Shown: one piece after another, positions 1-9,582 of the stretch
Layout of the letters: each line of letters opens with the position of its first letter
How positions within the stretch are numbered: position 1 is the stretch's first letter
Assembly: GCA_016176505.1 (NCBI GenBank)
Contig: JACOXB010000010.1
Coordinates: forward strand, 27,021-91,020
Source of the DNA: Candidatus Colwellbacteria bacterium
Lineage (GTDB): Bacteria > Patescibacteriota > Minisyncoccia > UBA6257 > Colwellbacteraceae
DNA length: 64,000 nt
Reading direction: 5' to 3'
Notes under the pieces: generated by a model
The model's input: only the letters and a program-made list of their open reading frames with translations
What the model was told of the DNA's origin: nothing
Databases searched by the model: none
Position numbers and translations under genes: made by a program

Positions 1-856
1 AAGTTAAAAGCAGGTGAGGATTTCTACTTATCCCATTGTCCGGAGCGAATCAATCCTGGGAATGAAGTTAAAGAGCTTCAGCATCTTTACAAAATCCCAA
101 GAGTTGTTGGCGGCTTAGAGAAAAAGAGCTTAAGGAAAACGGTTGCTTTTTACCGCTCAATTATTAACGCCTCGATTAAGCCAATGGGCTCGCTTCAGGA
201 AGCGGAGTCGGTAAAGATGGTTGAAAATATTTTCCGCGATATAAACATCGCCTTAGTTAACGAACTGGCTATGTCTTTCGATAAACTGGGGATCGATGTA
301 GTGAACGTCATTAACGGCGCGGCCACGAAACCCTTTTCTTTTATGCCCCACTACCCAGGCGTTGGCGTAGGCGGTCATTGTATCCCGGTTGATCCTTATT
401 ATTTGATTGATTATGCCAAAACTAACGGCTTCCACCACCGATTTCTGGAACTAGGACGGGAAATTAACAGTTCCATGCCGAAATTTACGGTGGAGCTTCT
501 TAAAAGCGCGCTCGGAGAAGCTCACCTTGATATTGATGGCGCCAAAATCGCCGTACGGATGTTGACGATGATCGCGAGAGTCCGGCCTTTGATGTAATTC
601 ACGAAATTAAAAAAGAAGGCGGCGAGCCGATTGTTTTTGACCCCTATCTTAAGGAGAAATCTGATGCCGAGAGCCTTAATCAGGCCCTCGAAAAGGCAGA
701 AGCGGTGGTAGTGACCACGGCCCATAAGCCCTTCCGCAGACTTTCACCTAAAACCCTGGCTGAAAAAGGCATTAAGGTCGTTATTGATGGCCGGAATGCC
801 CTTCCTAAAGAACGGTTTCTCGAGGCCGGCTTAGTTTACCGAGGTATTGGGAGATG
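1..856 (+). CDS. UDP-glucose/GDP-mannose (UDP-sugar) 6-dehydrogenase family protein; 5' end outside window; reading frame breaks around 545-560 (N-part in frame 1 to 597, C-terminal domain continues in frame 3 from ~598 to 856); possible pseudogene or assembly error
   Basis: Frame-1 translation from base 1 (…ERINPGN…GVGVGGHCIPVDPYYL…GAKIAV) matches the central/dimerisation region of UDP-glucose dehydrogenases. After the break, frame 3 reads TDVDDDRESPAFDVIHEIKKEGGEPIVFDPYL…VVVTTAHKPF…KVVIDGRNAL, the typical UDPG_MGDP_dh C-terminal domain. The expected LGLAFKP strand between the two parts is missing. Confidence 0.75.
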
Positions 857-2149
857 AAACAGCTAACCGCAAAAATAAAAACTTTTCACAAAGAAAGAGG
901 CTTGAGCACCTGGATGATTTTCTATCTCCTGGTTTATTTAGTGCTTGTTATTAAATTTGTTACTTTCCAGGAGCTTGATAATAACTTCCTCTTCGGCGTT
1001 TACAGTATTGCTGTTTCCGTCTTTATTCTTTCGCGTTTCGCGCTGGCCTATCTTTACGACCCCAAAGGGATTCTGACCGACGAGAACTACGAGCCAACCG
1101 TTTCTTTTGGTATTCCGGTGAAGAATGAGGAAGACAACGTTAGAGAAACAATCCTTCGGATTGCCCAATCTGATTATCCAAGAGATAAGTTTGACATCAT
1201 CGCGGTTAACGACGGCTCAACTGATAACTCGCTTGAAGAAATGAGAGCGGCCAAAGCGATCGCCTCCGGGTACGGAGTTAAGGTGAAAATTATTAATTGG
1301 AAAGTTAATCGAGGCAAACGTGAGGGTATGGCTGAGGCGGTTCGGCAATCAACAAGCGATATTATTGTCTTTGTTGACTCAGACAGTTTTGTTGAACGAG
1401 ATGCGGCCAGAGCTTTTGTGAAATACTTCAGCGATCCTCGAGTAGCGGCTGTAGCTGGTCATGCTTATGTGGCCAATGCCGATGTGAACACCTTAACCAA
1501 AATGCAGGCGGTTCGTTATTATGTGGCTTTTAAGGCTTACAAAGCGGCCGAGGCTCTTTTCGGATCAGTTACCTGCTGTTCTGGCTGTTCTTCGGCCTAC
1601 CGCCGAGAGTATGTCCTCCAAGTACTCGAACCCTGGCTTTATCAGAAATTCATGGGCGTCCGCTGTACTTATGGCGATGACCGCAGCTTAACTAATTTCC
1701 TTTTGAAAAAAGGTTATAAAACTATATTCGCGCCTGAGGCGATTGCCCACACCATTGTTCCTGAAACGATGAAGCAGTTTTTGCGCCAGCAACTCCGCTG
1801 GAAAAAGTCCTGGGTCAGAGAAAGCTTGAAAGCCGGAGGTTTTATGTGGAAGCGGAATCCCTTAATGGCCCTGTCGTTCTATCTCGGTATTTTCCTCACT
1901 CTAATGGCGCCGGTAGTGGTTGCTCGAGCCATGATCTGGTATCCCTACGCCACCGGCCGATTTCCTTTTTACTACATCATCGGAATTTTCCTGATGGCTT
2001 TGATTTACGGACTTTATTACTTTCTCCACACTAAAGACCGAAACTGGGTTTATGGCATTATCTTTACTACTTTCTACACCTTAATCCTGATGTGGCAGCT
2101 GCCTTACGCCATTGCCACGATTAGAGATCCAAAATGGGGCACACGATAG
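854..2149 (+). CDS. Processive family-2 glycosyltransferase of the hyaluronan synthase / NodC / chitin-synthase-like type (multi-pass membrane)
   Basis: 431-aa ORF with N- and C-terminal transmembrane segments. GT2 signature DIIAVNDGSTDNS, DSD, the GDDRSLTN motif (as in HasA/NodC) and the QQLRWKKSW (QxxRW) processivity motif. Confidence 0.8.
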   Translation: MKQLTAKIKTFHKERGLSTWMIFYLLVYLVLVIKFVTFQELDNNFLFGVYSIAVSVFILSRFALAYLYDPKGILTDENYEPTVSFGIPVKNEEDNVRETILRIAQSDYPRDKFDIIAVNDGSTDNSLEEMRAAKAIASGYGVKVKIINWKVNRGKREGMAEAVRQSTSDIIVFVDSDSFVERDAARAFVKYFSDPRVAAVAGHAYVANADVNTLTKMQAVRYYVAFKAYKAAEALFGSVTCCSGCSSAYRREYVLQVLEPWLYQKFMGVRCTYGDDRSLTNFLLKKGYKTIFAPEAIAHTIVPETMKQFLRQQLRWKKSWVRESLKAGGFMWKRNPLMALSFYLGIFLTLMAPVVVARAMIWYPYATGRFPFYYIIGIFLMALIYGLYYFLHTKDRNWVYGIIFTTFYTLILMWQLPYAIATIRDPKWGTR

Positions 2150-3738
2150 ATAAAAATAAATTAGGCGTTTTCCTTCTAGTCGCTTTGGTTCTCGGCGCTG
2201 GTATTTATGTCTTTTCCCTGAAACAAGATTTTATTGAAGCCTTCGAGCTCTACCAAGTTAAGGCCTATACTACCGGCTTTGAATACGGCGTGCTCCGAAC
2301 CAGCGATCTTCTGGCGTCTATCGTGAGCTTAGGCAGGGAAAGGGCCTTGGCCGAAACTAACGCGAACACCGAGGCGGTGCCGGTCCTGCTCTACCACGGC
2401 ATTCCCAATAAAGCTAGGGGTGACTATGATGTAGCCCTTGACGAATTTAAACAGCAAATGATTGCCTTAAAACTTGATGGCTGGCAAACCATTACGCTCG
2501 ATGAGCTCTACCGATTTAAGAAAGGAGAAATTGCTCTGCCGGAGAAATCATTCTTAATTACTTTTGACGATGGCCGCAAAGATAGTTATTACGCTGCTGA
2601 CCCGGTTTTGCGTTCTCTTGGCTACAACGCGGTTATGTTTGTCGCCACTATTGAACCAAACGTCCTTGAAGAAAGTAATTATTATCTTGAGGCGGACGAG
2701 CTCGAAAGGATGGCCAAAACCGGACGCTGGGAAATACAATCGCACGGCCATTCTGCTTCTAGGCCAACCGTTATAGATTCGAACGGCACAACCGAGCATT
2801 TCTTATCAAACCGCGTTTGGCTCCGAGAAGAAAATCGACTTGAAACCGAAACCGAGGCCGAAGCCAGAATTAAAAACGATCTTAATCAGTCAGAAGACTA
2901 TCTCGAGAAGCTTACTGGTAAAGACGTAATTGCTTTTGCCTTTCCTTTTGGCGATTTTGGCTATGCTGGAGCAAATTTCGAAGAGGCTGAAAGCATTGTT
3001 CTAGCGGCCGCGAACGAAATCTATCCCCTCTCCTTTTATCAAGCTGACGTCTCACTTCGCGGCAGGCGTTTCACGGCTGAATATCCCGAACCGGGCGGGA
3101 ATTCATTTTTTATCGCCCGGATTGAGCTCCATCCTGGTTTAAGGGGCGAAGAATTAGTGCGGCTAATGAACGGTGTTTCGGCAAGGACTCTGCCATACGA
3201 AGACAGCTTTGATGAAGATAATGATAACTGGATTATCACCTGGGGCGATGTCGCTTATGCCGGGGGCAATCTTGAGATGAAAGCCACGGCCGAAACCACC
3301 GGCAGTATGACTATCCTTGATGGCTCAAAAACTTGGCAAAATTATTCTTTCAAAGCCAAAATCCGAGATTTTCGCGGCAGTAATCTTTACTTAATTTTCC
3401 GGTTTCAGGATGATAATAACTTTGCCGCTTGTAATTTTGGCCGCGACCGAGTTCATGTTGAAGAAACGATTAACGGTCGAAGAGAAGTTATTCGAGGCGC
3501 GAACCAGATCCTGCTTTACCCGGCAAGCGGTTTCGACGTTGAAGTCAGAGTTAGTAATCGCGGCATTGAATGCCTTTATAACGGCCAAGTGGTGGCCGGC
3601 AGCCAGTTTCTTGATTTAGCTCTAAGCAATGGTGGTATTGGCTTAAAGGGCTGGGACCAAACTCTGGGCGAGAGCAGGATCTTAATCGAAAGTATTATAG
3701 TCGAACCCTACGAAAGAGTGGGAACGGTCCAATGGTAA
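2134..3738 (+). CDS. Polysaccharide deacetylase (NodB-homology domain) with N-terminal TM anchor and C-terminal ConA-like beta-sandwich domain
   Basis: NodB-like motifs FLITFDDGRKDSY…, AVMFVAT, …SHGHSAS. The C-terminal ~200 aa share the pattern W..G…LY.IFRFQDDNNF…RV…G with the next ORF. Overlaps the GT2 gene by 16 nt, so likely one operon. Confidence 0.75.
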   Translation: MGHTIDKNKLGVFLLVALVLGAGIYVFSLKQDFIEAFELYQVKAYTTGFEYGVLRTSDLLASIVSLGRERALAETNANTEAVPVLLYHGIPNKARGDYDVALDEFKQQMIALKLDGWQTITLDELYRFKKGEIALPEKSFLITFDDGRKDSYYAADPVLRSLGYNAVMFVATIEPNVLEESNYYLEADELERMAKTGRWEIQSHGHSASRPTVIDSNGTTEHFLSNRVWLREENRLETETEAEARIKNDLNQSEDYLEKLTGKDVIAFAFPFGDFGYAGANFEEAESIVLAAANEIYPLSFYQADVSLRGRRFTAEYPEPGGNSFFIARIELHPGLRGEELVRLMNGVSARTLPYEDSFDEDNDNWIITWGDVAYAGGNLEMKATAETTGSMTILDGSKTWQNYSFKAKIRDFRGSNLYLIFRFQDDNNFAACNFGRDRVHVEETINGRREVIRGANQILLYPASGFDVEVRVSNRGIECLYNGQVVAGSQFLDLALSNGGIGLKGWDQTLGESRILIESIIVEPYERVGTVQW

Positions 3739-4574
3739 ACACTTTGATCTCGGGCATTATTTCTATTTTTATAGGGGTTCTGGTAAACCCCTTTCTTTTT
3801 ATACCGAGGAGTGATCTGGGGGCCAATCTTTACGTTTACCCTGGAAAAGAAAGCGAATCCAAATTACTCGAAGAGACTGGCAATCAAGCCATGAGTCAAA
3901 ATTCTGACTGGTGGCTTAACTCAGGCGGCCTGATTTTTTGGAATGGAGAATCGGGTCGAACTATCCAGGGGGCTTTATCCATTTTTGATAAGTGGCGTCA
4001 GATCTATCAACGGACCAATTCCCTGGATACTGATAATGGCGAACATCCTCAAAATATTTTTCGCTTAGTCAGTCGAAATGAGTTACAAAGCCTTGAACAA
4101 GAAGTTTATTTTAAAATTAACCGAATTAATCTAAGCCAGAGCCCAAACCGCAACCAATCGAATGGCGTTCTCTTTTTCAATCGCTATCTTGATGGCGACA
4201 ATCTTTACTACGTCGGCTTAAGAGTCGACGGCCAAGCCGTAATTAAAAAGAAAATCAACGGGATTTACTATACAATGGCCATTACACCGGTTTATAAAGA
4301 CGGTTTCGGATATAATCGGGACTCTAATCCGAATCTTTTACCAGAAAATCAATGGATTGGCATCAGAAGCCGAATCTTGAATGATGAAAGTGGAAAAGTT
4401 AATATCGAACTTTTTATTGATAAAGAAGGGAACGGGAATTGGGTTTCGATTCTAAAAGCCGAAGATAATGGTAAATATTATGGCGGCAAGGCAATTAAAA
4501 ATGCCGGTCGCTACGGCATTCGGACTGATTTTATGGATGTGGAGTTTGAGGGCTACAAAGTAGCCAGTATATAG
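3732..4574 (+). CDS. Hypothetical membrane-anchored protein with ConA-like (DUF1080-like) domain paralogous to the C-terminus of the deacetylase
   Basis: 280-aa ORF with an N-terminal TM helix. Internal similarity to the 2134..3738 C-terminal domain (LFFNRYLDGDNLYYVGLRVDGQ… versus LYLIFRFQDDNNFAACNFGRDRVHV…). No function can be assigned from sequence alone. Confidence 0.55.
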   Translation: MVNTLISGIISIFIGVLVNPFLFIPRSDLGANLYVYPGKESESKLLEETGNQAMSQNSDWWLNSGGLIFWNGESGRTIQGALSIFDKWRQIYQRTNSLDTDNGEHPQNIFRLVSRNELQSLEQEVYFKINRINLSQSPNRNQSNGVLFFNRYLDGDNLYYVGLRVDGQAVIKKKINGIYYTMAITPVYKDGFGYNRDSNPNLLPENQWIGIRSRILNDESGKVNIELFIDKEGNGNWVSILKAEDNGKYYGGKAIKNAGRYGIRTDFMDVEFEGYKVASI

Positions 4575-4598
4575 TATTCAGTATCTCGTATTAAGTAT
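4572..4598 (+). repeat. Conserved 27-nt AT-rich motif (copy 1 of 2): tAGTATTcaGTATctCGTATTAAGTAT
   Basis: Near-identical 27-mer at 46140..46166 (tAGTATTatGTATatCGTATTAAGTAT). Both copies sit just upstream, on the plus strand, of a structured or conserved non-coding element. Confidence 0.5.
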
Positions 4599-4612
4599 TC
4601 GGAAATAAAAAA

Positions 4613-4741
4613 ATGTCCCGCTGCTTCACGAATTCCCGGCTTCTCAATAAGGTGGGTGACCGCAGTTCTAGCCCACGGGCTAAAATCAATTAGGTCTCCC
4701 CTAAACCACTACTTTGATCCGGAATCGTGGAGGCGGGACAT
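4613..4741. other. 129-bp element closed by a perfect 9-bp inverted repeat (ATGTCCCGC…GCGGGACAT) with internal hairpins; candidate structured ncRNA or insertion scar
   Basis: Terminal inverted repeat read directly. The inner arms ACGATTCCGG / CCGGGAATTCGT extend the stem. An A7 run lies immediately 5' on the plus strand (T7 immediately 3' on the minus strand). No tRNA or SRP fold could be fitted. Confidence 0.3.
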
Positions 4742-4901
4742 ACTTATTATAACAAAATTCACTGGAAATGTTGTGGATAAACTGCGAGTTTAGGGACAAA
4801 TGGTCAAGAGACTCTGGGGAGGCGGTTTTGGCGGGTTGACATCGGAGGGCATTACTGGCGAGAGAACGAGAATTCGTTCTCCCGCCAGCCTTTGCCGATC
4901 C

Positions 4902-5156
4902 CTAGAGCTGTACCACTCCGCGCTTGTCGAACGCGTACTGCTTGTCGTCGCAGATCACGAAGCTCCAGAGATGATGATCGATGGGCCAGAAGCCCTTGAC
5001 CACGCGCCTGCCGTTCTTGCCGGGTTCAGACTGGAGGTAGACATCCCCGACCCTGCTTTTCCGGCCAGTTCTGATCGTCGTCCATGGGTCGGTCTTGCGC
5101 AGCCGAACCTGGACTTGGGTTCCTTTTTTCTGAAGCTTACCTGCCAAAAGTTCCAC
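4902..5156 (-). CDS. Hypothetical small protein in GC-rich segment
   Basis: 84-aa ORF with a protein-like composition (…GFWPIDHHLWSFVICDDKQYAFDKRGV…) inside a visibly GC-richer ~500-bp block. The competing plus-strand ORF 4800..5204 is Gly/Arg/Leu-biased and looks antisense. Confidence 0.3.
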   Translation of the reverse strand: MELLAGKLQKKGTQVQVRLRKTDPWTTIRTGRKSRVGDVYLQSEPGKNGRRVVKGFWPIDHHLWSFVICDDKQYAFDKRGVVQL

Positions 5157-5192
5157 CTCCCCCTCGTCTATCGGTCTCTAAACGTACTAACT

Positions 5193-5216
5193 GGAGCCCC
5201 GTAGAATCGAACCACC
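5193..5216 (-). other. tRNA 3'-end-like fragment (T-arm + acceptor 3' strand, GGTTCGATTCTACGGGGCTCCA on minus strand) without a matching 5' half
   Basis: The minus-strand sequence matches a T-loop/T-stem/acceptor consensus, but no complementary 5' acceptor strand lies upstream. This pattern is typical of an att-site remnant of a tRNA-targeting integrative element. Confidence 0.35.
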
Positions 5217-5284
5217 CCCTTTCCTTACCTCGCAGGCTCCCCTCCGAGTCCCTCCGTGCCCAGAGGGCAACCTGCCAGAAATAA

Positions 5285-5326
5285 AACCGGCCTTCTTTGC
5301 TGAAGGCCGGTTCTTTGTCTATTTTG
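5285..5326. terminator. Bidirectional rho-independent terminator
   Basis: Hairpin CCGGCCTTC-tttgctg-AAGGCCGG, flanked by an A-run 5' and TTCTTTGTCTATTTT 3'. It lies downstream of ndk (minus strand) and of the GC-rich block (plus strand). Confidence 0.6.
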
Positions 5327-5504
5327 GTTATTTCTTATCCTCTAATTCGACAAAAACCAGCCTTCTCTCCGAGAAGAATAAAAAGGATAAAGTAGACAAC
5401 CCCACCCAGGCTGATTTTTCTCGAATCCCTTTCCATAATAAAACTCATCTTAAGGAAATTACTCGTATCCGTCAATTAGAAACTGTGGAAAAGTAAAATT
5501 CTTG

Positions 5505-7496: not shown

Positions 7497-8336
7497 CTAC
7501 TCTCGACCCACTCCAACTATACCATCGTTAATAATCAGATGAACTGTTCCGTTTTCATCGGTCCGATAAACCCGGCTGCCGACTGAAGCTAAACGGCTCA
7601 AAACAGCTGAAGTTGGATGACCGTAGGGATTATTCTCCCCTACTTCGATTACGCCAATTTTAGGCGTTGTTTCAGCTAAAAATTTCAGCCCAGTGGCTGT
7701 TCGCGAGCCATGATGGCCAACTTTTAAAATATCAGCGTCAAGGTCATAATGCTCGGTTAAATAATTCTCAACCTCAAAACCAGCATCGCCGGTAAAAAGA
7801 ATTTGGGCACCTTCAGCCTCAAGCTCAAGTACTAACGAACTATTATTTAATTCGCTTGAGTTTCGAAGCTGGTTTGTCGGAGAAAGAACGCTGATTAAGT
7901 TTTCCCCGTACCTGATTTTATCTTTAGCCCCAAGGGTAATAACCGGGATTTCTTTGCTCTTCACTAAATTCCAAAAATCCTGCCATTCTTTACCTTGACC
8001 TTCTCGACCGTTCCAAATAATCGCTCCGATTCTATAACGTTCAGCCACATCATAGAGCCCACCATAATGATCAAGCTGAGGGTGAGTAAGAATCACCAAA
8101 TCAATATAACGATCAGTTGGCCGAAGTACTCGCGCCAATTCGAAAAGCACTTCTTTGCCTGGCCCGCCATCAATTAAAACTTTTGCGCCTCCGGGTAAAA
8201 CTAAAAGCTCGCTGTCTCCTTGGCCAACATCGAGAAAATAAAGGTCGAGTTTCTCATCTCTCGCGGCTGCAACGTAATACCAAACAAAAAGATTAAAGCC
8301 AATTAAGACTAAAAAGCTTAATGACAAATATTTCAT
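7497..8336 (-). CDS. comEC: ComEC/Rec2 C-terminal metallo-beta-lactamase domain (separate ORF; overlaps the upstream ComEC membrane ORF out of frame)
   Basis: FLDVGQGDS, HPQLDHYGG and KVGHHGSRT motifs of the MBL fold, preceded by an N-terminal TM helix. Confidence 0.75.
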   Translation of the reverse strand: MKYLSLSFLVLIGFNLFVWYYVAAARDEKLDLYFLDVGQGDSELLVLPGGAKVLIDGGPGKEVLFELARVLRPTDRYIDLVILTHPQLDHYGGLYDVAERYRIGAIIWNGREGQGKEWQDFWNLVKSKEIPVITLGAKDKIRYGENLISVLSPTNQLRNSSELNNSSLVLELEAEGAQILFTGDAGFEVENYLTEHYDLDADILKVGHHGSRTATGLKFLAETTPKIGVIEVGENNPYGHPTSAVLSRLASVGSRVYRTDENGTVHLIINDGIVGVGRE

Positions 8337-9582
8337 AGCTCAAGAATAAGCCGACAATCCAGCTACTTATTAAAGATAGACTATTTGAAACAAGGCCCAA
8401 AGCCGCCGTGATAAAACCGAAAAACATGGTGAGTGGAATCGCCTCAAGCACGAGGATATTAGATAAAAGTGCGGTTGGTGAAATATAACCGAAACTAGTA
8501 AGCAGAATCGGCGAAACCGCCAGTTGAGCTGAAAAAGTTTGGAGAAAAGTAGTTCGCCAATTTAACCAGCCGTTCTTCCCGAAAAACCGAATCCAGTTTT
8601 TGAATCTCGGATAAAGATAAACAATGCCGATGGTGGCGGCAAAGGATAGCTGGAATCCAAGGTCAAATCTCAAAAGGCTTGGATTTAATAAAAGCATTAG
8701 AAGAGCCGTCAGGGTGATAGCATTTCGGAAACTATAAATCCGGCTTTGGTTTTGAGCCAAAAGTAATATTAAGCCCATAATACCGGCCCGGACTGCTGAA
8801 CTTTGAGCGCCGGTCATTAAAACAAAAGTGGGAATGGTGAAAATACTAAGGTAAAAAGCTTTGCGCCTGCCGATAAGACCGGCGAGCACTCCGGCTAAAG
8901 TCGTGCCGATAATCGCGATGTTATAACCAGAAAGAGCCACAATGTGAGTCGTGCCGCTTTTCCGCAGAGCCTCATCAAATTCTTTAGTAAACTCACTTCG
9001 TTCGCCAAAGAGAAGCCCAGAGAGAAGTGAGGCTTTCTCTTGAGGCAGGACCGAGTTGATATTGGAAACCATTTTTTCTTTCAGTCCAAAAAGGGAGGAT
9101 TTGATAAGGTTCCCCTGGTTTTGGCCAATGACCCTCACTCCGGGTTCGAAAACGAGATTAAGTGAACCGCTTGGTGATTTTTCGATTTTACTATTGACCT
9201 CGAGCACTTCGCCGTAGCCGAATTTCGGCAAAGGCGGAAGATACAACCGGACCTCGCCCTGGTACGGCTCTCTAAGTTTCAAATCCACTTCCTGGCCAGT
9301 CAAAGTATCTTTCGGCTCTCGGAAAACCACGCCCGTGAAGGTCTGCCCATCACCTGACGGTAGAATCTCTTGATTAAGAACGTTATAAAAATGAAAATAG
9401 AAAAACCCGAGAAAACTTATTAAAGACAAGATAAAGATAAACTTCGACCTCAAGCTAAAACCGAACCAGGCCAGAAGAATCGCGAGAATTATCCCGAGCC
9501 AAAAACTAATCTCAAAACTGGCAAACCCAATCCCTAGAATGAAGAAGAGGGCCGAATAAAAAGCGAGATTATAGAGCGGCAT
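8293..9582 (-). CDS. comEC: ComEC/Rec2 competence channel, membrane part (DUF4131 + Competence domain)
   Basis: Polytopic membrane ORF with a ComEC-like middle region (…TGTTHIVALSGYNIAI…). It lies directly upstream of the MBL ORF with a 44-nt out-of-frame overlap, which points to a split or frameshifted single comEC. Confidence 0.7.
   Translation of the reverse strand: MPLYNLAFYSALFFILGIGFASFEISFWLGIILAILLAWFGFSLRSKFIFILSLISFLGFFYFHFYNVLNQEILPSGDGQTFTGVVFREPKDTLTGQEVDLKLREPYQGEVRLYLPPLPKFGYGEVLEVNSKIEKSPSGSLNLVFEPGVRVIGQNQGNLIKSSLFGLKEKMVSNINSVLPQEKASLLSGLLFGERSEFTKEFDEALRKSGTTHIVALSGYNIAIIGTTLAGVLAGLIGRRKAFYLSIFTIPTFVLMTGAQSSAVRAGIMGLILLLAQNQSRIYSFRNAITLTALLMLLLNPSLLRFDLGFQLSFAATIGIVYLYPRFKNWIRFFGKNGWLNWRTTFLQTFSAQLAVSPILLTSFGYISPTALLSNILVLEAIPLTMFFGFITAALGLVSNSLSLISSWIVGLFLSYEIFVIKLFSLNWL

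Follow-up and report, generated by a model that had tools for sequence, protein, structure and literature searches.

A conserved operon of Candidatus Colwellbacteria that pairs a hyaluronan synthase/NodC-like glycosyltransferase with a PgaB-like deacetylase and is predicted to serve extracellular polysaccharide synthesis

Class I hyaluronan synthases (HAS), which are encoded by hasABC in Streptococcus and by hasA-galU-ugd on Bacillus pXO1/pBCXO1 and are also known from a Chlorella virus and from vertebrates, are single membrane-embedded family 2 glycosyltransferases (GT2) of the Chitin_synth_2 type, and in the has operons a nucleotide-sugar 6-dehydrogenase lies next to the synthase. Rhizobial NodC is likewise a Chitin_synth_2 enzyme whose gene adjoins that of a carbohydrate esterase family 4 (CE4) protein, NodB, while the pgaABCD and icaADBC operons combine a synthase with an extracellular de-N-acetylase of the PgaB/IcaB type. 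The known UDP-N-acetylhexosamine (UDP-HexNAc) dehydrogenases supply Wzy- or ABC-type pathways (enterobacterial common antigen, capsular polysaccharide CP5, Vi) and are not known to feed a HAS-like synthase. In the bacteria of the candidate phyla radiation (CPR, or Patescibacteria), very few biosynthetic pathways are present, and surface building and host adhesion are largely obscure. A four-gene cluster that bears on all of these systems is found in a 64,000-nucleotide stretch of DNA from Candidatus Colwellbacteria (GenBank assembly GCA_016176505.1, contig JACOXB010000010.1, positions 27,021 to 91,020), hereafter the window, in whose numbering all coordinates are given. The cluster occupies positions 1-4574 of the plus strand and encodes a nucleotide-sugar dehydrogenase, a GT2 synthase, a CE4 protein and a protein termed ORF5 (open reading frame 5; Table 1). 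It is reasonably likely, as regards its general mechanism, to constitute a synthase-dependent pathway for an extracellular polysaccharide built from N-acetylhexosamine.

The dehydrogenase/GT2, GT2/CE4 and CE4/ORF5 gene pairs overlap by 4, 16 and 7 nucleotides, respectively. In the first of these overlaps, the dehydrogenase stop codon TGA (855-857) and the GT2 start codon ATG (854-856) share the tetranucleotide ATGA. Overlaps of this size are the usual sign of translational coupling, and the four genes thus form one tightly packed operon, with a predicted role in the synthesis, export and modification of an amino-sugar polysaccharide. Relatives were collected by scanning one genome per species for the GT2 motifs alone; 368 were found, and the best 80 loci were analysed. 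GT2 and CE4 genes are adjacent in 65 of the 72 assessable genomes. At CPR-type loci, the CE4 gene lies directly 3' of GT2 in 31 of 34 cases, ORF5 is nearby in 27 of 32, and the dehydrogenase gene is upstream in 23 of 36; in other phyla (Actinomycetota, Methylococcales, Acidobacteriota/Holophaga, Nitrospirota and Planctomycetota), a CE4-related gene follows GT2 at 34 of 38 loci. Furthermore, the adjacency of dehydrogenase and GT2 recurs in CPR, Actinomycetota, Holophaga, Crenothrix and Paenibacillus. An earlier reading of the window made from the sequence alone (the sequence-only reading) had proposed an operon on the basis of gene arrangement. All the features it described were found in the sequence where it had placed them, its operon logic is upheld by the conservation of the genes as one unit across relatives, and the small-genome bacterium it had envisaged as host is indeed a member of the CPR, NCBI assigning a protein identical to the GT2 product to a metagenome-assembled genome of Candidatus Colwellbacteria. 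The synthases of different CPR classes are 60-70% identical, which is unusually high for CPR and argues for strong selection.

The cluster is thus conserved across many CPR bacteria and in other phyla, and is so far uncharacterised. No description of it was found in the searchable full-text literature, where one report concerns a different, eukaryote-derived group of bacterial chitin synthases (PMC5122149) and another merely remarks on Frankia with "chitin synthases" other than NodC (PMC4447401).

Table 1. Genes and domains of the cluster, in window numbering.
Feature	Position	Strand	Basis
Nucleotide-sugar 6-dehydrogenase, UDP-N-acetylhexosamine type, C-terminal two thirds (5' end of the gene upstream of the window)	1-857	+	Pfam, NCBIfam
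Membrane-embedded GT2 synthase, 431 residues	854-2149	+	Pfam, NCBIfam and PDB matches
CE4 protein (534 residues; whole gene 2134-3738): membrane anchor and PgaB/IcaB-like de-N-acetylase domain	2134-3195	+	Pfam, NCBIfam, PDB
Concanavalin A (ConA)-like beta-sandwich (CBM66/DUF1080-like), C-terminal part of the CE4 deacetylase	3196-3738	+	
ORF5, 280 residues: N-terminal membrane anchor, variable linker and strongly conserved ConA-like beta-sandwich of about 230 residues	3732-4574	+	

The GT2 protein possesses the motifs DSD (residues 175-177, nucleotides 1376-1384), GDDRSLTN (residues 274-281, with GDDR at residues 274-277 and nucleotides 1673-1684), QQLRWKKSW (residues 312-320, with QQLRW at residues 312-316 and nucleotides 1787-1801) and a C-terminal WGTR (residues 428-431, nucleotides 2135-2146), which are invariant or nearly so among 40 homologues. 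Two N-terminal and three C-terminal hydrophobic helices are recognisable on inspection of the sequence. The DxD, GDDR, QxxRW and WGTR motifs are common to class I HAS, as are two N-terminal helices, C-terminal channel helices and a chain that ends right after WGTR. In Pfam, the protein matches Glycos_transf_2 (E 8e-29) and Chitin_synth_2 (PF03142; E 3.7e-23, 82.4 bits against a cut-off of 27). Its first NCBIfam model is NodC (TIGR04242), which aligns over its full length with 198.3 bits, below the cut-off of 550, and its second is PgaC/IcaA (TIGR03937), with 127.3 bits, below the cut-off of 422. The best PDB matches are the Chlorella-virus HAS (7sp7, E 4.7e-35), whose alignment takes in the C-terminal channel helices and reaches WGTR, and Xenopus HAS1 (E 9e-31). 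Among the 17 PDB matches at E <= 1e-3, no chain is named chitin synthase, and cellulose synthase is far behind. In comparisons with annotated plasmid genes, Bacillus HasA is 32-33% identical (about 150 bits), NodC 27-30% (135-149 bits), and PgaC, IcaA and HmsR 22-26% (79-94 bits).

The position of the synthase was also assessed in a neighbour-joining tree of 277 columns and 500 bootstraps with support counted as bipartitions, which is a modest test. In the underlying alignment, HAS and NodC sequences are 28-34% identical to the window protein over the catalytic and channel regions (HasA 34%, two NodC 29-30%), and PgaC/IcaA are 19% identical. A single clade (79% bootstrap) unites the window protein with its CPR relatives, with homologues of about 50% identity from other phyla and with a sequence from a Paenibacillus plasmid, and PgaC and IcaA are split off from this clade in 100% of bootstraps. 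Among HasA, NodC and the viral and vertebrate HAS, each attains only about 10% support as the sister of this clade, the family grouping with HasA in 10% and with the Chlorella-virus and Xenopus enzymes in 11% of replicates. It thus appears that the synthase belongs to a distinct, uncharacterised clade within the processive HAS/NodC/chitin-synthase branch. The sequence-only reading had assigned it to that branch from GDDRSLTN and QQLRWKKSW, and both the motifs and the Chitin_synth_2 match agree with this; clustering with non-processive enzymes was not seen. Membership of the HasA, NodC or PgaC families themselves, however, is contradicted by the separate clade and by scores under the model cut-offs. 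Databases name the synthase "glycosyltransferase" or, at the Joint Genome Institute (JGI), "hyaluronan synthase", and the latter label is probably wrong.

GT2 genes whose products are 63-66% identical to those of CPR bacteria are also present on contigs labelled Nanoarchaeota/Woesearchaeota (L002, L010 and L027; proteins P0022 and P0102). The flanking genes of L027 (PGK, GAPDH and GT4 genes) are diagnostic of neither domain, and sharing with archaea rests on the record titles only. These occurrences on DPANN-labelled contigs could reflect cross-domain transfer or mis-binning. The homologue on the Paenibacillus cellulositrophicus plasmid (NZ_CP045296; L082, 6380-8257) is 41.7% identical and has an N-terminal extension of about 190 residues, in which RxxxR and DxSxxG motifs, recognised by eye only, mark a candidate PilZ domain for binding cyclic di-GMP. 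The dehydrogenase gene of this plasmid (5049-6293) is absent from the PLSDB gene table.

The dehydrogenase matches Pfam UDPG_MGDP_dh with its central and C-terminal domains (E 1.5e-29). On the NCBIfam model TIGR03026 (cut-off 189.8), the frameshifted copy in the window gives two pieces of 185.8 and 45.3 bits, and full-length orthologues give 353-433 bits. The fragment in the window scores 148 bits on the model for UDP-N-acetylmannosamine (UDP-ManNAc) dehydrogenase and 115 on TviB, as compared with 44-59 on UDP-glucose dehydrogenase models; for one full-length orthologue, the corresponding values are 318, 260 and 189-195 bits. The same ranking holds for full-length orthologues from CPR, Rhodococcus, Mycobacterium, Holophaga and Crenothrix, the last of which reaches 469 bits on TviB. 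Furthermore, in a PDB search with a CPR orthologue (L005), the top matches were 4r16 (UDP-ManNAc dehydrogenase), Cap5O and 3g79 (N-acetyl-galactosaminuronic acid dehydrogenase), all of which outrank every UDP-glucose dehydrogenase. By its sequence, then, the operon dehydrogenase resembles the UDP-HexNAc dehydrogenases WecC, Cap5O and TviB, unlike HasB. The UDP-HexNAc 6-dehydrogenases, comprising the WecC/Cap5O (UDP-ManNAc), TviB/WbpA (UDP-N-acetylglucosamine, UDP-GlcNAc) and 3g79 (GalNAc) types, provide the best matches, among both profile models and PDB entries, of this enzyme and of its orthologues in five phyla, although the scores lie below every equivalog cut-off of their models. The HasB-like role that had been proposed for it, the supply of UDP-glucuronic acid, is not borne out, since by model scores and PDB ranking alike the partner of the synthase is not of the UDP-glucose 6-dehydrogenase type. 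A WecB-type UDP-GlcNAc 2-epimerase gene is absent from the window and was seen near only 1 locus of about 90 (L025). This rarity weakly favours UDP-GlcNAc over UDP-ManNAc as the more economical guess, and UDP-GlcNAc is the most likely substrate.

These properties bear directly on whether the product might be genuine hyaluronan, composed of glucuronic acid and GlcNAc as in the has operons and as the JGI label implies. The best solved relatives of the synthase are hyaluronan synthases, Bacillus HasA is slightly nearer to it than NodC (34% as opposed to 29-30% identity), a 6-dehydrogenase adjoins it, and relatives carry a lyase fusion, described below. Yet the dehydrogenase performs far better on UDP-HexNAc than on UDP-glucose dehydrogenase models, the synthase joins neither HasA nor the viral and vertebrate HAS in more than about a tenth of bootstraps, and the family 18 glycoside hydrolase (GH18) genes beside its relatives fit hyaluronan poorly. 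Moreover, the cluster differs from has operons in possessing a CE4 de-N-acetylase and ConA-like proteins; hyaluronan pathways are not known to include a de-N-acetylase. Hyaluronan is thus a very unlikely product.

The CE4 protein matches Polysacc_deac_1 (PF01522; E 2.5e-16, 60.2 bits against a cut-off of 23.1) with a domain spanning residues ~83-340. Its NCBIfam scores are 87.1 bits on PgaB (TIGR03938) and 56.9 bits on IcaB (TIGR03933), below the respective cut-offs of 321.9 and 248.35, and its top PDB matches are BpsB/PgaB. As judged from these comparisons, it is closest to PgaB, BpsB and IcaB rather than to PgdA or to NodB, after which the sequence-only reading had named its type, and its scores below the equivalog cut-offs indicate that it is not a member of those families. 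A hydrophobic helix is recognisable in the sequence at residues ~10-31, by which the enzyme domain should be tethered outside the cell. The GH153 domain of PgaB is absent, and a ConA-like module stands in its place. The logic of synthase and extracellular de-N-acetylase is nevertheless that of the pga and ica operons, from which the cluster differs in the 19% identity of its synthase to PgaC/IcaA, in the lack of PgaD or IcaD and in the presence of a dehydrogenase. Conservation of the gene unit also indicates that the deacetylase belongs with its neighbours rather than to an unrelated peptidoglycan pathway, the outcome that would have run counter to the operon proposal. One long CE4 homologue (P0245) has extra C-terminal length; it was considered as a fusion of CE4 with ORF5 and rejected, as BLASTP shows no similarity to ORF5.

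The pairing of a Chitin_synth_2 GT2 with CE4 also recalls NodC and NodB, and raises the question as to whether the synthase might make short chito-oligosaccharides as diffusible signals rather than a polymer. NodC is the top NCBIfam family of the synthase, with 198 bits over the full length of the model, and a CE4 gene adjoins GT2 as nodB adjoins nodC. However, this score is far under the NodC cut-off of 550, identity to NodC is 29-30%, and no NodA was seen. Furthermore, the CE4 protein is a membrane-anchored PgaB type of 534 residues with a module resembling a carbohydrate-binding module (CBM), as compared with the 215 residues of NodB. Finally, relatives of the cluster possess export proteins based on tetratricopeptide repeats (TPR) and dedicated glycanases or lyases, the polymer-exporting and polymer-cleaving partners that are typical of polymer systems. 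An oligosaccharide signal is therefore scarcely to be expected.

The reading frame of the dehydrogenase in the window shifts from 1 to 3 near position 555, from which the sequence-only reading had gathered that the pathway may be decaying. In a 4.5-kb Logan contig (L001, run SRR12113420), the entire operon is present with 100% identity save for one difference, 19 extra nucleotides, CTCGGCCTTGCTTATAAGC, between window positions 555 and 556. As shown by alignment with this contig, the 19 nucleotides bring back the canonical IAVLGLAYKPDVDDD segment and join the two frames into one that is open. The deletion junction has a microhomology of only 1 nucleotide, which does not indicate a mechanism. 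Four further Logan contigs from sister runs contain ORF5, and none of them extends to the frameshift site. When the dehydrogenase was checked in related genomes, as had been suggested, it proved to be an uninterrupted reading frame in each of the 23 CPR-type genomes with a recognised copy ahead of GT2. The disruption is thus real in the assembly, but since the deletion is missing from an identical, independent contig, decay is not supported, and an assembly error or a strain variant is most likely. For genome interpretation, this means that the apparent dehydrogenase pseudogene of the window probably does not testify to decay.

A second feature that could be taken for decay lies in the deacetylase. 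The CE4 protein retains TFDDG (residues 143-147), YHG (with His88) and His204, while the second metal-binding histidine, at residue 209 (residues 204-209 correspond to window positions 2743-2760), is a serine. Among 120 aligned sequences, namely the window protein and 119 homologues, this position is histidine in 112; the window protein shares its serine with P0242, the closest relative, at 65% identity. Judging from this alignment, Ser209 is a lineage trait. Were the pathway decaying in its host, independently of what the polymer is, the dehydrogenase would be a true pseudogene and the deacetylase an enzyme deprived of a metal ligand, and both the frameshift and the serine would be explained. 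Against this stand the 19 nucleotides and open frame of the identical SRR12113420 contig, the intact GT2, CE4 and ORF5 genes, in which every checked family-invariant residue is kept, and the presence of the same serine in the 65%-identical relative, which suggests an old, tolerated trait rather than recent damage. Decay is therefore an unlikely explanation.

Both the C-terminal part of the CE4 protein (residues 338-534) and ORF5 are predicted by AlphaFold2 to adopt ConA-like folds, with mean confidence scores (pLDDT) of 93.8 and 90.8, respectively. DUF1080 (PF06439; gathering score 26.8) matches the homologous CE4 C-terminal domains of P0246 with 35.8 bits and of P0359 with 25.1 bits, but not that of the window protein. 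Neither ORF5 nor 50 of its relatives has any match in Pfam, PF06439 included, or in NCBIfam. The paired ConA-like domains of the sequence-only reading thus stand as regards the predicted fold, but not as regards a relationship in sequence: the two modules were considered as paralogues and this was rejected, given that BLASTP finds nothing and that hhalign of the two family alignments returns a probability of 1.8%. What the CE4 C-terminus and ORF5 share is accordingly, as far as the models go, a common fold rather than demonstrated paralogy.

ORF5, for which the database label is "hypothetical protein", belongs to a compact family, which numbers 728 representative clusters in a set of 1.84 billion proteins. 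Across CPR, identity between members is 45-61%, and many Arg, Lys, Tyr and Asp residues, R111, Y152, R164, K172-174 and R264 among them, do not vary. Relative to the ConA-like modules of the CBM66, DUF1080 and YesU types, the family is distinguished both by its lack of matches to Pfam and NCBIfam models and by this level of identity, which is unusually high for a binding module. The ORF5 domain is found fused to CE4 (true fusions being P0272, P0487 and P0492), to GH6, and to a heparinase II/III-type lyase together with CE4. In these fusions it behaves like an accessory binding module on the catalytic domains of carbohydrate esterases, glycoside hydrolases and polysaccharide lyases (PL). By analogy, the stand-alone, membrane-anchored ORF5 would most plausibly hold or position a polymer at the cell surface, a catalytic role akin to those of GH16 or PL7 enzymes being the less likely alternative.

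The partners added by relatives of the cluster further suggest what the polymer may be. In outer-membrane-bearing relatives, a protein of 1360-1420 residues comprises about 700 residues of TPR repeats, a CE4 domain and a C-terminal region of about 400 residues. It is found at L053, L066, L073 (13187-17269), L080 and about 20 other loci of Methylococcales, Holophaga, Nitrospirota and Acidobacteriota. Its C-terminal region has a weak hint of DUF2490 and may be a porin, and the protein as a whole resembles, by analogy, the export logic of PgaA/PgaB or BcsC, the addition of a TPR-containing protein being a further likeness to pga, where PgaA is such a protein. A GH18 gene is present at 13 outer-membrane-type loci, often beside the gene for the TPR-CE4 protein, and the order on the Paenibacillus plasmid is CE4, dehydrogenase, GT2, CE4, GH18. 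At L088 and L089, the dehydrogenase and GT2 genes are followed by a single protein that joins a heparinase II/III-type lyase, CE4 and the ORF5 domain; L088 also contains LeuRS, ComEA, ComEC and holA genes, a set consistent with a CPR-like monoderm bacterium. Of the components of synthase-dependent exopolysaccharide systems, then, a synthase and a CE4 deacetylase are found in the window, and relatives supply the giant TPR-CE4 protein and a GH18 enzyme or heparinase-type lyase.

Together, these observations suggest the following pathway. In the cytoplasm, the dehydrogenase would oxidise a UDP-N-acetylhexosamine, most likely UDP-GlcNAc, to its uronic acid. The GT2 synthase, embedded in the manner of class I hyaluronan synthases or of NodC, would polymerise UDP-sugars processively and extrude the growing beta-linked chain via its own channel. 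Outside the membrane, the tethered PgaB-like CE4 protein with its CBM-like beta-sandwich would strip some N-acetyl groups off the chain, and tethered ORF5 would bind the polymer and so either hold it on the cell or help in its trimming. The product is probably chitin- or hyaluronan-like, acidic and partly de-N-acetylated. Each element of this chemistry has its own source: the GH18 partners point to beta-1,4-linked GlcNAc in the putative HexNAc backbone, the PgaB-like nature of CE4 to partial de-N-acetylation outside the cell, and the coupled HexNAc-type dehydrogenase, together with the lyase fusion, to uronic acid in the CPR version of the polymer. Heparinase II/III-type lyases act on uronate polymers only. 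That uronic acid is incorporated is nevertheless close to an even chance.

Several considerations weigh against the pathway as drawn. Model scores are unable to fix the substrate specificity of the dehydrogenase, and the site of its frameshift is spanned by one independent contig only. The serine at residue 209 makes the activity of the deacetylase uncertain, as metal-dependent activity may be altered or lost. A role cannot be assigned to ORF5 from its fold alone, which is also that of lectins, CBMs, GH16 enzymes and PL7/PL14 lyases. Finally, a dehydrogenase is present at only 8 of 35 non-CPR loci, and its absence from so many of them means that the core system may make a neutral chitin- or chitosan-like polymer.

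This last point extends to the CPR operon itself. Its product could be a neutral exopolysaccharide of beta-1,4-linked GlcNAc and glucosamine, the dehydrogenase then serving another glycan and adjoining the synthase through co-regulation only. NodC as the top NCBIfam match of GT2 and GH18 beside the cluster at the 13 outer-membrane-type loci and in Paenibacillus are in keeping with such a polymer, and so is the universal partnership with CE4, given the more restricted presence of the dehydrogenase (8 of 35 non-CPR and 23 of 36 CPR-type loci). Against it stand the ATGA shared by the dehydrogenase stop and the GT2 start, the repetition of the dehydrogenase-GT2 adjacency from CPR to Paenibacillus, and the heparinase-type lyase that at L088 forms one protein with CE4 and the ORF5 domain right after these two genes. 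A neutral product is a credible alternative that we consider improbable, and a polymer containing uronic acid remains the reading preferred for the CPR operon.

More tentatively, and with the balance tilted against it, the cluster may represent an unrecognised class of synthase-dependent exopolysaccharide system beside those for cellulose, alginate, poly-N-acetylglucosamine, Pel and hyaluronan. Such a class would be defined by a HAS/NodC-like synthase and a glycosaminoglycan-like chain in which HexNAc is combined with HexNAc-uronic acid and which is partly de-N-acetylated outside the cell and, in CPR, retained there by ORF5 as a dedicated, membrane-anchored protein resembling a lectin. If this is true, the polymer is a candidate for the long-sought matrix by which CPR episymbionts attach to their hosts. 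The core of HAS/NodC-like synthase and PgaB-like deacetylase is present in the culturable Methylovulum, Methylobacter, Holophaga foetida, Mycolicibacterium agri and Rhodococcus and on the Paenibacillus plasmid, so that its product and function are directly testable.

Beyond the operon, the gap of 930 nucleotides between ORF5 and ndk contains several minor features. Just 3' of ORF5, the minus strand at 4606-4742 is predicted to fold into a rod-like hairpin of about 135 nucleotides, closed by ATGTCCCGC/GCGGGACAT and followed by a U-run, with a minimum free energy of -56.5 kcal/mol and a z-score of -4.6 versus shuffles. The hairpin contains GAAGCAGC, which is reminiscent of signal recognition particle RNA; no Rfam family matches the hairpin at E <= 1, and it is called neither as a tRNA nor as a tmRNA. 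Across the intergenic region 4575-5504, there is no Rfam match at E <= 0.1 and no tRNA or tmRNA. Positions 4750-5504 are without a confident gene and include an 84-residue minus-strand reading frame (4902-5156) with no Pfam match, a fragment resembling a tRNA T-arm (~5195-5225, by eye) and a strong terminator-like hairpin (5285-5312). Further downstream, ComEC is encoded on the minus strand (7497-9582) as two overlapping reading frames, one for the membrane part (8293-9582, 429 residues) and one for the metallo-beta-lactamase part (7497-8336, 279 residues). At L088 the same domains lie in a single gene of 781 residues, and the split in the window could be a second frameshift in the assembly or a natural one.

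The window also contains a TIGR-Tas locus (20387-23130, plus strand), a system of an already known type. With 140 bits, its reading frame of 308 residues (20387-21313) exceeds the cut-off of 100 for NCBIfam NF052498, "TIGR-Tas system RNA-guided endonuclease"; in the PDB, it weakly matches an IS110 C-terminal domain and TasH. On its 3' side lie three non-coding arrays of 36-nucleotide units, AGCGAG(C/T)C-N10-AGAAACCC-N10, at ~21323-21400, 21539-22655 and 22776-23130; the second comprises 31 units in perfect register, and each array closes with a terminator-like hairpin and a T-run. Among metagenome contigs, at least 120 bear the array motif. About 40 of 80 retrieved contigs contain reading frames, 41 in all, that match the 308-residue protein (E <= 1e-3), of which at least some adjoin an array.

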